A DNA stretch of 27,739 nt, taken from IMG/VR virus record IMGVR_UViG_2695420411_000008. One strand, written 5' to 3'. Source of the stretch: a virus. Its lineage: Duplodnaviria; Heunggongvirae; Uroviricota; Caudoviricetes. The notes beneath the pieces were generated by a model. That model did not search any database, was not told the origin of the DNA, and worked only from the letters and a program-made list of their open reading frames with translations. Positions 2,972-9,543 of this stretch are shown here, piece by piece. Both the position numbers and the translations under genes were made by a program. The number at the start of each line of letters is the position of its first letter. Within the stretch, counting starts at the first letter, position 1.

Positions 2972-3187
2972 ATGTTACGCATGGAAAAACTAACCACTGG
3001 CATCGCCTATGGTGCATCAGCGACTAACGCTGGTTACTGGAGCCTGCAGTTGCTTGACCAGGTGTCACCATCGCAGTGGGCAGCCATTGGTGTGCTTGGC
3101 AGCCTGGTGTTCGGGCTGCTGACGTATCTGACAAACCTGTATTTCAAAATCAAAGAGGACCGGCGCAAAGCCGCCAGGGGGGAATAG
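2972..3187 (+). CDS. Holin, phage 21 S-like pinholin, with dual-start motif
   Basis: GGAGG RBS; N-terminus M-L-R-M-E-K (two in-frame Mets 3 codons apart flanking Arg); two TM segments; close resemblance to S21. Confidence 0.9.
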
Positions 3188-3723
3188 TGGCTGACAGATC
3201 AAAGCTTAGCGCTGCGGTATTAGGTCTTATCCTCGCCGGTGCGTCAGCGCCCGTTATTCTCGATCAGTTCCTGAATGAGAAGGAAGGCAACAGCCTGATT
3301 GCTTATCAGGACGGTGGCGGCGTCTGGACTATTTGCCGCGGCGCCACGCTGGTAGATGGTAAACCAGTTCGCCAGGGCATGAAGCTGACGCAGGCCAAAT
3401 GTGACCAGGTGAATGCCGTTGAGCGAAATAAAGCGCTGGCCTGGGTTGAACGCAATATCAGGGTGCCGCTGACCGAACCGCAAAAGGCCGGAATAGCTTC
3501 TTTCTGCCCGTATAACATCGGGCCCGGTAAGTGCTTCCCCTCGACGTTCTATAAGCGCATCAATGCCGGTGACCGTAAAGGGGCATGCGAAGCGATCCGC
3601 TGGTGGATAAAAGATGGCGGCCGGGATTGCCGGCTAACCAAGGGGCAGAAGAACGGATGCTTCGGTCAGGTGGAACGCCGCGACCAAGAAAGCGCGTTGG
3701 CATGCTGGGGGCTCGATAAATGA
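3187..3723 (+). CDS. SAR endolysin (T4-lysozyme-type muramidase with N-terminal signal-anchor-release domain)
   Basis: GTG start overlaps holin stop; Gly/Ala-rich weakly hydrophobic N-terminus; catalytic spacing E-x8-D-x5-T in EGNSLIAYQDGGGVWT. Confidence 0.85.
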   Translation: MADRSKLSAAVLGLILAGASAPVILDQFLNEKEGNSLIAYQDGGGVWTICRGATLVDGKPVRQGMKLTQAKCDQVNAVERNKALAWVERNIRVPLTEPQKAGIASFCPYNIGPGKCFPSTFYKRINAGDRKGACEAIRWWIKDGGRDCRLTKGQKNGCFGQVERRDQESALACWGLDK

Positions 3724-4112
3724 AAGCTCGTCACATCATTGCGATTGCCATATTCCTCCTTTGCCTGTTCGGCGGGGCGTGCTGGTCGGCATGGTATTAC
3801 AGCGACAAAGCCAGTAGCGAAAAGGAGCGGGCCGATAGCGCAGAACAGCAGGCTGAGACCGCGAATGCTGTCACCGCGAACGTGATTCGGGCCGTGAGTA
3901 TCATCAACGCCATTTCAGAGGCGAACCAGAATGCAAAGAACAAGATCGCACTGGAGTCACAGAGAGCCCAGGCAGATATCAAAGTGGCTGTTGCGGATGA
4001 TGATTGCGCTCGTCGGCCTGTGCCTGCTGCAGCTGCTAACCGGCTGCGGGAATACGCGGACAGTTTACGTGCAGGCGCCGGTGGTGCCCCTGCCGGCGAA
4101 CCTGACAGCTGA
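3720..4112 (+). CDS. Spanin inner-membrane subunit (Rz-like)
   Basis: ATGA overlap with endolysin stop; N-terminal TM helix then a coiled-coil-like periplasmic domain. Confidence 0.7.
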   Translation: MKARHIIAIAIFLLCLFGGACWSAWYYSDKASSEKERADSAEQQAETANAVTANVIRAVSIINAISEANQNAKNKIALESQRAQADIKVAVADDDCARRPVPAAAANRLREYADSLRAGAGGAPAGEPDS

Positions 4113-4260
4113 AACACCACAGCCTGCCATTCCCGAGCCGCTGACCTACGGGGACAGTCTGGATCTGAATGTCAGTCTGCTATCGGCGCTGGGGCAATGC
4201 AATCGGGATAAGGCTGATATATGGAAGGTTGAACTTTCACGCACATCTCATTTTAAATAA
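3997..4260 (+). CDS. Spanin outer-membrane lipoprotein subunit (Rz1-like), overlapping Rz in another frame
   Basis: Signal peptide with lipobox LLTGC, Pro-rich mature part; starts inside Rz and extends past its stop. Confidence 0.6.
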   Translation: MMIALVGLCLLQLLTGCGNTRTVYVQAPVVPLPANLTAETPQPAIPEPLTYGDSLDLNVSLLSALGQCNRDKADIWKVELSRTSHFK

Positions 4261-4266
4261 CAATAT

Positions 4267-4294
4267 TTGCGAAAGTTACCCGTTTCGCTATCAT
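4267..4294 (+). promoter_or_regulatory. Candidate sigma70 promoter
   Basis: TTGCGA - 16 nt - TATCAT immediately after Rz1. Confidence 0.3.
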
Positions 4295-4648
4295 AAAAAA
4301 TGTTAACCCACGGAAAGTTCAAGGAGGTCTTTTTGACCCAGTTTTTGGACTTCCCCTTAAGCAACCGTTGATCGTGACGTCAGGGTTCCTGAGCCAGGGG
4401 TAACAGAAATCGAGAGGATAGTGCGAAGGGAGAATTCCGAGATGGATGACCATCTTGAGATTTTTACCACCCGCGTCTGGGACGTTGGAGTCTCCCGCCT
4501 TTCAGGTCACGCTGTTGGGTCAATTCATGAAAAGCCAAGGGGCTCAGGTGACGCTGCTTGGTTTGGCCCCGAAATGTCCGTCGCGTCATTAGGGATAACT
4601 GAACCTTGTAGTAATTCGCATTAGCTTGGCCTTCCTTTCACCTACAAA

Positions 4649-4668
4649 CCGCCTACGGGCGGTTTTTT
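4649..4668 (+). terminator. Rho-independent terminator (possibly bidirectional)
   Basis: CCGCC-TACG-GGCGG hairpin followed by TTTTTT; reverse strand has hairpin then TTTGT. Confidence 0.6.
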
Positions 4669-4759
4669 AGTGTCAACGCTATGGACAAACTCATCTTTAT
4701 GGCTACATCCCCCGGAGGGGATGCGTAAAAGGCTTAAGAAAAATGATTTTGAAAAATGC

Positions 4760-5020
4760 TTATTGTGCTCTGCCTAGTAGAGCAGCGACTCTCTCGTTTA
4801 ATTTTTCTAGGTATCCATCTTTAGCGGGAATGTCGAATTCGATGGGGTCGGCCTTAGAAACCCCTTCTAAATAAACATCTCCGAGGTGAGTTTCTTTCCC
4901 CACAACTCCGTTTAAAGCCGTTGATAATACAGCAATAGCAACACGAGAAGCGTGGCTGTGTAACTGTAACTCTTCAACCAAATCCTCAAGATGGGCAATT
5001 CTTTTTTCTACATCTGACAT
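4760..5020 (-). CDS. Hypothetical 86-aa protein, antisense to the late operon
   Basis: Clean ORF on minus strand in a locally AT-rich segment between lysis and terminase genes; charged helical-looking sequence; no family recognised. Confidence 0.5.
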   Translation of the reverse strand: MSDVEKRIAHLEDLVEELQLHSHASRVAIAVLSTALNGVVGKETHLGDVYLEGVSKADPIEFDIPAKDGYLEKLNERVAALLGRAQ

Positions 5021-5156
5021 AGTCGTTCCTTTGCATCAAAGTTCTTAGGGTTGAAACATGACACTTGTATAGAAGCAAAATAATTTTTGCCGCTAATACT
5101 TCGTCATTTTCAATGGTTACTATCGCCTCGTTTATTGGAATATTCCAGAGAGTTTT

Positions 5157-5864
5157 ATGGCAAAACCGGACTGGGGAAGCCTCCAAAGACGGTTCCTCGC
5201 CGAGCATGCCAAAACAGGTATATCGCCGAAAGAATGGTGCGAAGCGCAGGGACTGAATTATACATCTGCGCGCAGGTACATCAAAAAGCCTGCTGCGCAA
5301 AAAACTGCGCAAAAGGATGTGCGCAAAACTGCGCAAAGCCAGATGCCGCATGTAGTAGTGGTTGAAGCCTCTACGCCAGTTGAGGGCGATACTGCGCAGG
5401 AAAACGCAGGCATCCTTAAACCACAGCATGAGCAGTTTGCGCAGAACATCGCGCGGGGCATGCCGCAGAAAGAGGCGGCGATATGCGCGGGCTATTCGCC
5501 TTCACGCGCTGATTCCCAGGCATCGATACTTTTCAAACGCCCGGATGTGCGCAGGCGCATCAGAGAGCTGCGTCAGGATGCCGCTCTGCTCGTATCATTC
5601 GACGCGAAAGACCTGGCTGAACTCTCCTACAAATCGGCGAAAGCCGCGCTGGACGCTGAGAAGTTTGGGCAGGTAGCCCCGAACATCAAAAACGCCGCGC
5701 AGCTCACCGGCATCGACATGAGCAACAAAACGGAAGTGAATGTCGATCTGGCTGGCCTGAGTTACGGAAAGGTCTGCATCGTCACGCCGTCGAACTGCCC
5801 GCCTGAAGCGTGGGCAGCGCACATGGATAAGCTGCGCGAGGGAAAGCAGACAGCCCAACAATAA
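5157..5864 (+). CDS. Terminase small subunit
   Basis: Directly upstream of terL; N-terminal HTH-like segment [25 protein letters not shown]. Confidence 0.75.
5294..5337 (+). repeat. Four spaced copies of TGCGCAAA inside terS
   Basis: TGCGCAAA at 5294, 5306, 5320 and 5330; encodes a repeated AQK(T/D) peptide. Confidence 0.6.
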
Positions 5865-5899
5865 TCGATGGTGTCCTGTACTCATTCAGTAGCGACTGG

Positions 5900-7105
5900 G
5901 TGCTCGGGACGCTGTACGACGCACCGATAGGCTCTGTCCGCTGGCGCTGGACGTATGGCGGTCGTGGTGGCGGCAAATCGGTAGAGATTGCCCGCGCGCT
6001 GGTATTGTTGGGCGCTATCGAGCCAATGATCATCCTGTGCGCTCGTGAGTTCCAGAACTCTATCAACGATTCGGTACTGGCACTGCTGGACGCTGAAATC
6101 CACTCGCTTGGCCTGGCGCACTTCTACAAGGTCAAGAACAACGAGATAGAGGGCAGCAACGGCACGCGGTTTACCTTCAAAGGTCTGCGCAACAACATCC
6201 AGAGCATTAAGTCGATGCACGGCATCAAAATATGCTGGGTAGAGGAAGCGCAAACCGTATCGCAGGATAGCTGGGACATCCTCGGTCCGACCGTTCGCGC
6301 CAATAAATCCGAAGTGTGGGTGTCGTTCAACCCGCGCGAAGCTACCGACCCGACCTACGCCATGATGGAGCGGCACCGCGCCGATCCCCCTGATGGCGGA
6401 GCGATTATTACCTGCGTCAACTACTGCGATAACGCATTCTTCCCTGACGTGCTCAGGCACGAGATGGAATACTGCAAGCGTATCGACTTCGAGGCTTACG
6501 AGCATATCTGGCTGGGGCTGCCGAAGGCGCTCAGTGAGGCCGTTATCTTCTCCGGCAAGTACCGGGTTGAGGCATTCTCTGACGACCTGTGGAAAGAAGC
6601 CGATCGCCTGTTTTATGGGGCTGACTTCGGTTTCGCCAACGACCCATCCACTCTGGTCCGTTGCTTCATTATCGGCACCCGATTGTACATCGAGTACGAA
6701 GCCTACGGCGTCGGCGTCGAGCTGGACGAAATGGCGCAGTTCTATGACTCCATCCCGGAATCCAGAAAATGGCCCATTCACGGCGACTGCAGCCGGCCGG
6801 AGACCATCAGTTATCTTTCGCGTCAGGGCTTCATCATCGACGGCGCTACCAAATGGCCGGGGAGCGTTGAGGACGGCATTACCTACCTGAAAGGGTTCGA
6901 AGAAATCATCATCCATGAGCGCTGTAAGCACATGGTCGATGAGGCGCGCCTTTACTCCTACAAAACCGACCGCATGACCGGCGAAGTGCTGCCGGTTGTC
7001 GTGGATAAGCATAACCACCTGTGGGATGCCGTGCGCTACTCGCTGGATGGATACATCACAAGCGTTGGCGATCTCGGTGTCTGGGCCGCCCTGGGCAAAC
7101 AATAA
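5900..7105 (+). CDS. Terminase large subunit
   Basis: Walker A GGRGGGKS near the N-terminus, C-terminal nuclease-like region; GTG start as in ORF track, true start uncertain. Confidence 0.9.
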
Positions 7106-9227: not shown

Positions 9228-9425
9228 TCAATCTACATAAACCCTGAATTGAGCTGAATTACCCTCTACGGCATCAATGCGAGCGTTCACCCCGAGCGCT
9301 GCAAGTTGGTCTTTGATTTTGGTGTAACGCTCGCCCTCAACATAGTCATTGTTGAGGCCAGTGGTGCGTGACCACTCATCTGCCATGCGATCCATCTTCG
9401 CTAACAATTCTGCTTTAGTGCTCAT
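9228..9425 (-). CDS. Hypothetical 65-aa protein, antisense insertion inside the head module
   Basis: Minus-strand ATG at 9425 preceded by AAGGAG at 7-nt spacing; TTGACA -35-like hexamer further upstream (plus-strand 9485-9490); ORF track's upstream Met lacks an RBS. Confidence 0.55.
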   Translation of the reverse strand: MSTKAELLAKMDRMADEWSRTTGLNNDYVEGERYTKIKDQLAALGVNARIDAVEGNSAQFRVYVD

Positions 9426-9543
9426 TTCAAAACTCCTTTTGGTGGTGGGAATCAATGTTCATGTTTTCACTATCGAATTTAGAGTGTCAAGGCCGAAAAT
9501 TAGTGGTGAAGAGCTCGTGCTAAAGCATTAGATAAACCCCAGT

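Follow-up and report, generated by a model that had tools for sequence, protein, structure and literature searches.

A reverse-oriented gene in the late operon

What is the small gene that opposes the late genes of this prophage between its lysis and packaging modules, and what might it do for the phage or its host? The window, by which we mean the whole 27,739-nt stretch of DNA that was analysed, derives from an E. coli prophage. Two of its stretches (4200-5200 and 5157-7105) were compared with 5,426 complete E. coli genomes; NZ_CP062811.1 (strain Res13-Sevr-PER07-33) was 100% identical over both, and 16 further complete genomes were at least 99.8% identical. The window contains no tRNA or tmRNA gene. 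The features around the gene, in window positions, are:

2972-3187, P21-type holin
ending at 3723, lysozyme
3720-4112, Rz
3931-4260, Rz1/LysC
between Rz1/LysC and the terminator hairpin at 4646-4665, an unannotated stretch of about 400 nt
4669-5156, low-GC cassette (moron) of 488 bp, between the terminator of the upstream RNA and terS
4760-5020, minus strand, pid homologue of 86 aa with an ATG start (stop codon included), from the ORF list and homology
5157-5864, terS
5900-7105, terL

A preliminary description, made from the sequence of the window, had placed an AT-rich island from 4681 onwards, with one clean minus-strand ORF at 4760-5020, and had taken this ORF for an accessory gene inserted in reverse at the junction of the lysis and packaging modules. 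We found the ORF exactly as described, with homologues that conserve both the protein and its position, and the flanks were also as stated, with the lysis genes up to Rz1/LysC on one side and terS and terL on the other. The GC content of 4669-5156 is 0.406 (0.429 in the pid ORF, 0.353 in 5021-5156), compared with about 0.56 in the flanks (0.559 in the lysis genes, 0.566 in terS-terL) and 0.546 in the entire window. In the related prophage L030, 57 nt separate the homologous terminator from a terS of the same type (MAKPDWGALQ...), and pid is absent; similar pid-less junctions are found in L022 and L036. Because L030 has this junction without pid, we regard the 488-bp segment as an insertion and a genuine moron. 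Its limits, 4669-5156, were deduced from the L030 comparison, and the left edge given earlier falls within 12 bp of ours. Judged by this empty site, the segment is a pid-type moron, that is, a small self-contained cassette that lies antisense to the late operon between the last terminator of the lysis region and terS.

We dismissed the one other minus-strand ORF in this interval (4986-5429, 147 aa), which runs antisense to terS and is unsupported. Elsewhere in the late operon there is a second small reverse gene (9228-9426, minus strand, 65 aa from its ATG), whose neighbours are a head-morphogenesis gene and a DUF2213 gene. RefSeq calls its product a hypothetical protein, and the product has no match among the PHROGs.

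The 86-aa protein belongs to the Pid family

The product of 4760-5020 is present in RefSeq as WP_053271624.1, labelled hypothetical protein, and the preliminary description had recognised no family for it, proposing HMM and structure-based searches and a comparison of the Rz1-terS junction. That first impression has to be replaced, since the protein falls in the experimentally characterised Pid family of phage P22. BLASTP aligned it with P22 Pid over 86 of 86 residues and gap-free, with 62% identity (53/86), 83% similarity (71/86) and an E value of 8e-41. The HMM search gave phrog_16546 (86 positions, function unassigned in PHROGs), which matched residues 1-86 of the 86 at E 4.9e-36. Using tblastn against phage genomes, we retrieved 30 records of P22-like Salmonella phages with 62% identity over 86 residues; BTP1 and phage P6 are among them, and their records label the gene 'Pid regulatory protein'. 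At the nucleotide level, megablast with the region had no match among 50,697 phage genomes, and P22 surfaced only in the protein-level search. From these alignments we are practically certain that the 86-aa gene is a member of the Pid family and an orthologue-level relative of P22 pid. The gene itself is thus an ordinary homologue of a characterised gene: by homology, a known family of accessory genes clearly gains an E. coli prophage member, and no novel kind of gene is involved.

General family databases added little. The sole Pfam match was SlyX (PF04102; residues 2-44, E 0.01), and membership was rejected, since its 16.9 bits fall under the 30-bit gathering threshold and the match reflects common coiled-coil character. 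NCBIfam returned just a spurious 13-bit match, PADLOC-DB, which covers known anti-phage defence, had no family at E up to 1, and sequence searches of the PDB, whether started from the one sequence or from a profile of 22, yielded coiled-coil noise alone (E of at least 0.18).

We then turned to structure prediction. AlphaFold2 given 4 sequences reached a pLDDT of 58, too poor for use; with 21 sequences the pLDDT was 80, and helices were placed at residues 3-40, 46-56 and 70-83. The protein is acidic and is predicted to be all-helical, consisting of one 38-residue helix and two short ones. In the structure-based search, Foldseek of the model against the PDB and BFVD returned nothing at E <1. The only solved structures that align with nearly the whole model (77/86 residues) have the AroQ-class chorismate mutase fold (e.g. 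1ecm), and in both a long first helix is followed by two shorter ones. The AroQ arrangement of helices forms intertwined dimers. Going by the model, the 86-aa protein probably oligomerises via its long helix.

Pairwise Nei-Gojobori dN/dS values were 0.18 for the window gene and P22 pid, 0.17 for the window gene and its relative in L005, and 0.26 for P22 and L005. Such ratios indicate that the pid protein is under purifying selection.

Relatives of pid occupy one antisense slot

No more than three full-length clusters came from a word-indexed search of 5.8 billion proteins; their identities were 99%, 69% and 59%. The family became visible when 1.84 billion representatives were searched exhaustively with a profile, which retrieved 21 clusters (at the 50%-identity level) with E up to 1e-3. 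The full-length members are 80-104 aa long, mostly 82-89, and share the core LxLxxHAxRVAI.VLS...GY.EKL...V.ALL; the name, wherever the sources give one, is always 'hypothetical protein'. The genera represented are Enterobacter, Klebsiella/Raoultella, Erwinia, Trabulsiella, Serratia, Brenneria, Pantoea and Buttiauxella, and full-length homologues occur in at least 10 genera. A single Klebsiella/Raoultella member is present on 438 contigs, and a scan of GTDB species representatives gave one locus, in Buttiauxella. A paper of 2022 still termed Pid an ORFan; given these enterobacterial relatives, it is one no longer.

At every locus that we examined (P22, BTP1, L005-L015, L049 and L050/L051), pid is antisense, with spanin genes on one side and the small terminase gene on the other. 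This includes the 69% relative (L005-L009) and the Pantoea-type 59% relative (L010-L015). The Klebsiella relative (45% identity) adjoins a Terminase_2 terS and the Serratia relative (35% identity) a lambda Nu1-type terS, so that the antisense slot is constant whatever the terminase type. The comparison of the Rz1-terS junction that had been proposed thus finds the gene present in related loci and absent from L030, L022 and L036.

Two further reverse-oriented loci were noted in these prophages. In L007, which carries the 69% relative, an 86-aa reverse ORF between terL and the portal gene (2348-2608) was considered as a Pid paralogue and rejected at 18% identity. In the Serratia prophage with a distant Pid relative (L050/L051, 5956-8023), a reverse gene pair encoding NA37 (PF04245) and RelA_SpoT (PF04607) lies between the Q antiterminator and the holin; by its domains, this pair may be an accessory or defence module of the alarmone-synthetase type.

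The window and P22/BTP1 loci are alike in several respects: in each, an antisense moron encoding an 86-aa Pid lies between the lysis module and the small terminase gene, the Shine-Dalgarno sequence and some 80 nt of the leader next to the gene are common to the two, and a hairpin lies 3' of both genes. They differ in that orf80 and orf59c lie between pid and the terminase gene in P22, whereas the window cassette directly adjoins terS. The host is E. coli here, with one host strain that lacks dgo, whereas the function is known for P22 in Salmonella.

Leader, candidate promoter and 3' end

We compared the surroundings of the gene with those of P22 pid. DNA homology between the two begins about 80-100 nt before the ATG, crosses the ORF, and ends about 12 nt beyond the stop codon. 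The elements located on either side of the gene are:

5027-5031, minus strand, Shine-Dalgarno AAGGA, 6 nt before the pid ATG, read from the sequence
5021-5100, minus strand, proximal 5' leader with the P22-homologous box TTTCAACC-N-AAGAA, from pairwise alignment
5257-5284, minus strand, best candidate pid promoter TTGATG-N16-TATAAT, inside terS codons 34-43, matching 10 of 12 consensus positions
4705-4724, minus strand, GC-rich hairpin without a U-tract, 36 nt past the pid stop codon
4646-4665, both strands, shared hairpin of 8 bp (5 GC), from terminator scan and fold

The AAGGA aligns with the AAGGAG of P22 pid (PMC3573128). The conserved part of the leader matches the segment from TSS+110 to +162 of the P22 UTR, which is needed for a shorter pid transcript (PMC8835761). 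P22 pid is transcribed from a promoter whose -10 element, AATCCT, lies at -186 to -181, with the TSS at -174 and hence a long 5' UTR (PMC8835761); pairwise alignment gave no counterpart of this mapped promoter in the window, where the pid-terS gap is only 136 nt. The best candidate, at 5257-5284, would imply a 5' UTR of about 230 nt; sites like it are expected by chance about 1.5 times in the 1.3 kb scanned. At the same terS codons the pid-less L030 reads TTTATG...TGTAAT, and the differences are all synonymous for terS, which is suggestive, although it is one comparison.

At the other end, the P22-type Rho-independent terminator (AAGCCGCTAAGTAAGCGGCTTTTTT), on which the stability of the P22 transcript depends, is absent from the corresponding place in the window. 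The RNA of 4630-4765 (minus strand) folds at -41.6 kcal/mol (z = -3.7), and the hairpin at 4705-4724 is likely to stabilise the pid mRNA at its 3' end or to halt its processing there. The hairpin at 4646-4665 had been described as a bidirectional terminator. The hairpin is real and is followed by TTTTTT on the plus strand, and 18 loci retain it at the place where the upstream RNA element ends; because the minus-strand tail is only TTTGT, 'bidirectional' is generous. We consider it a strong intrinsic terminator for the plus-strand RNA and a weaker one for the pid transcript, with its UUUGU tail.

A terS remnant in the pid leader

The Pantoea-type loci gave a clue to the origin of the leader. 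In L011, a spacer of 42 nt lies between the pid start and that of an intact Terminase_2-type terS encoded on the opposite strand. When we compared this terS with the region upstream of pid in P22, its residues 1-86 were found on the opposite strand, frameshifted and with stop codons, as two matches, one of 51 bits and one of 36 (joint E 4e-16 in a small search). The tblastn search with L011 terS also matched the window, and the two remnants are:

728-981 of L004 (P22, BK000583), terS fossil, equal to -291 to -38 relative to the pid ATG
5058-5114 of the window, plus strand, 19-codon remnant of a terS start, MTLV*KQNNFCR*YFVIFN

The window remnant has 9 of 19 identities with the intact terS (MALTDKQEMFCREYLIDLN) and two in-frame stops, and it is much shorter than the P22 fossil (19 codons compared with about 86). 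Because the P22 fossil contains the mapped -10 element and TSS, the long 5' UTR and weak promoter of P22 pid can be equated with a decayed terS fragment. As the alignments read, this fragment is one that has travelled together with the P22 pid cassette, an origin of the leader that the consulted papers do not mention. Inside its intact terS, L011 carries a promoter-like TTGAGA-N17-AATATT whose -10 lies at about -183 to -178, near the P22 position. From these loci we infer that the ancestral pid promoter lay antisense within the 5' end of terS and that the cassette moves with that stub.

What P22 Pid does and how the E. coli gene may work

Very few phage proteins are known to activate a particular metabolic operon of the host, and Pid is one of these. 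Expression of pid alone induces dgoT::lacZ, a reporter of the host dgoRKAT operon (Cenens et al.; PMC3573128), and frameshifted P22 pid yields neither protein nor dgo response (PMC3573128). Deletion of dgoR makes the dgo operon constitutive, and overexpression of dgoR blocks the effect of Pid (PMC3573128); direct binding of Pid to DgoR is not reported in the consulted papers on P22. The P22 locus was described as a moron opposing the late genes with a Rho-independent terminator at its end, and deletion of pid left the lytic and lysogenic phenotypes unaltered (PMC3573128).

Pid is also a molecular marker of the P22 carrier state (pseudolysogeny). The protein is abundant after carrier-state infection and very low in obligately lytic infection; P22 lysogens show neither detectable protein nor a detectable dgo response, Pid being typical of the unintegrated 'carrier state' (PMC3573128). 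Wolput et al. (2022) explained expression in the carrier state by gene dosage, the promoter being weak and constitutive. The preliminary description held that genes in this orientation are typically expressed in lysogens. Judged for the family, this stands for RNA, pid being one of the top five transcribed prophage genes in BTP1 lysogens (TPM >100; PMC7067206), and fails for the protein in P22 lysogens (PMC3573128).

By homology with P22 pid, the E. coli pid would have its own weak sigma-70 promoter and a long 5' leader beginning inside or beside the 5' end of terS. Pid would accumulate chiefly from unintegrated or multicopy phage genomes, as in the carrier state, with some transcription in lysogens, and convergent late transcription would silence pid during lytic growth. 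The protein would counteract the GntR-family repressor DgoR and so derepress the D-galactonate operon dgoRKADT. We think it reasonably probable that the window gene works like P22 Pid in these two respects, dgo derepression via DgoR and expression biased to the carrier state. The whole explanation, a pid-type moron with a P22-like promoter, expression and DgoR target, seems to us to have somewhat better than even prospects.

Two observations on the protein bear on this. Against a P22-like function, 38% of the residues differ from P22 Pid. The sole known loss-of-function substitution in the P22 protein, the attenuating T84M (PMC8835761), affects a position that is R in the window protein and variable across the family. 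The lack of counterparts of the P22 promoter and terminator in the window counts on the same side.

We next asked whether the carrier hosts contain the proposed target. In E. coli the orthologous operon is annotated dgoR-dgoK-dgoA-dgoD-dgoT. Among four carrier genomes inspected, three (NZ_AP027960.1, NZ_LS483297.1 and NZ_CP092244.1) have dgoRKADT intact, and in the fourth, NZ_CP062811.1, the operon is missing and pid is intact. There (L017, 7621-9587) yidX is followed by a 114-nt remnant of the dgoT 3' end and then by cbrA, and the same contiguous junction is found in 414 of the 5,426 complete E. coli genomes. Hosts of the prophage, with pid intact, thus include both dgo-positive and dgo-negative strains. 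Because one carrier strain is without the operon, we treat the dgo target in E. coli as a prediction from homology; the promoter and the pattern of expression are likewise predictions. The DgoR model survives a dgo-negative host, since prophages also bring genes of no use to some hosts. The Pid family may nonetheless have another target.

Other readings of the locus

The strongest alternative is that the Pid-family protein mainly acts on something other than DgoR, either another host regulator or a phage process of the carrier state, and that dgo is a host-specific read-out. The intact pid in the dgo-less NZ_CP062811.1 fits this, as does the spread of the family over many genera of Enterobacterales at just about 30-60% identity, and the P22 deletion leaves lysis and lysogeny unchanged (PMC3573128). 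Specific dgo derepression is, however, the sole experimental phenotype in the family, dgoR is present in three of the four carriers, and a recently acquired prophage can retain a gene that is useless in a given host. We hold a main target other than DgoR to be rather unlikely. If a broader target were true, it would explain why pid persists in dgo-less E. coli.

A wider scheme would make the Pid family a position-locked regulatory module, in which a promoter lying ancestrally antisense in the 5' end of terS drives a transcript that covers the terS start and converges on the late operon and the protein has a host or phage target broader than DgoR, the two jointly holding packaging off and reprogramming the host in the carrier state. 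We offer this scheme as speculative and give it a low probability.

Lower still we place the reading in which the antisense transcript, running from inside terS over its start and on into the late-operon terminator, is the main product, acting as an insulator or a brake on leaky packaging genes in lysogens or carrier cells, with the protein secondary. It draws on the position between lysis genes and terS, kept at all examined loci including those with unrelated terminases, and on where promoters fall: the mapped P22 promoter is within the terS fossil, L011, with its intact terS and 42-nt spacer, has a promoter-like site in terS at about -180, and the best candidate of the window is also in terS. 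Since that candidate lies inside terS, a leader starting there would run antisense across the ribosome-binding site of terS. Yet the P22 leader is antisense to a dead terS fragment and not to gene 3, and a dN/dS of about 0.18 points to selection on the protein. Because the pid frameshift abolishes the only known phenotype, Pid protein is the effector in P22.

A functionless chance ORF in an AT-rich spacer, which the shortness of the gene, its RefSeq label and the lack of a Pfam, NCBIfam or PADLOC family might suggest, is very improbable: a characterised homologue was detected as protein (PMC3573128), and homologues are full-length in at least 10 genera, with dN/dS well under 1 and a conserved Shine-Dalgarno sequence. 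This conservation rules it out.

Lambda bor is a reverse-oriented moron downstream of Rz/Rz1 that is expressed in lysogens, and Bor is an outer-membrane lipoprotein. The window gene resembles it in slot, orientation and probable logic, as an accessory gene that would be transcribed independently within the late operon, and the two are without similarity in sequence or domains. A Bor-like or other surface or secreted factor of lysogenic conversion, though it would agree with the place and orientation, is ruled out by the sequence and has the least chance of all: there is no match to Lambda_Bor (PF06291) or to any lipoprotein or signal-peptide family of Pfam at E up to 0.1, the acidic, helical N-terminus MSDVEKRIAHLEDL contains neither signal sequence nor lipobox, the protein is predicted to be soluble, and its homology to the cytoplasmic Pid is clear.

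Returning to a P22-like Pid, its relatives, their fixed antisense slot and the dgo-less host offer a comparative handle on its role, through conserved residues, the universality of DgoR and position. The E. coli homologue also lets the question of Pid move into E. coli genetics.

A structured RNA candidate upstream of the insert

The unannotated stretch between Rz1/LysC and the insert contains a second element:

4267-4294, plus strand, promoter-like site TTGCGA-N16-TATCAT, candidate promoter of the element below
4299-4668, plus strand, noncoding element of about 370 nt, directly upstream of the pid insert and ending at the 4646-4665 terminator

This element occurs in 20 complete E. coli genomes and on 27 IMG/VR contigs, and in none of the 50,697 phage genomes. 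Rfam 15 had no family for it at the gathering threshold or at E up to 10, returning terminator look-alikes only. The 'Pas' prophage sRNAs of a 2026 preprint, which are located upstream of holin genes, were considered and are unrelated. Wherever the flanking genes could be identified, the element lies on the late strand directly after the last gene of the lysis region; the lysis cassettes before it are otherwise unrelated, the genes downstream vary, and pid follows only in phages of the window type. Nearly all relatives have a -10 hexamer at the same distance, in surrounding sequence that differs.

The fold was analysed in 18 distinct copies with 69-97% pairwise identity, in which no long ORF is conserved. 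In a multi-helix fold, 96% of the cells were canonical pairs, compared with 37-54% when the partners were shifted by 1-3 columns, and two-sided (compensatory) changes were seen in 33 of 89 pairs, compared with 11-20 in the shifted controls. A 12-codon mini-ORF with a TTG start behind a perfect AAGGAGG is kept in 18 of 18 copies; both sit in a nearly invariant 5' domain of 110 nt. On this covariation, 4299-4668 is a candidate for an undescribed structured RNA, and it looks more novel than the pid homologue beside it.
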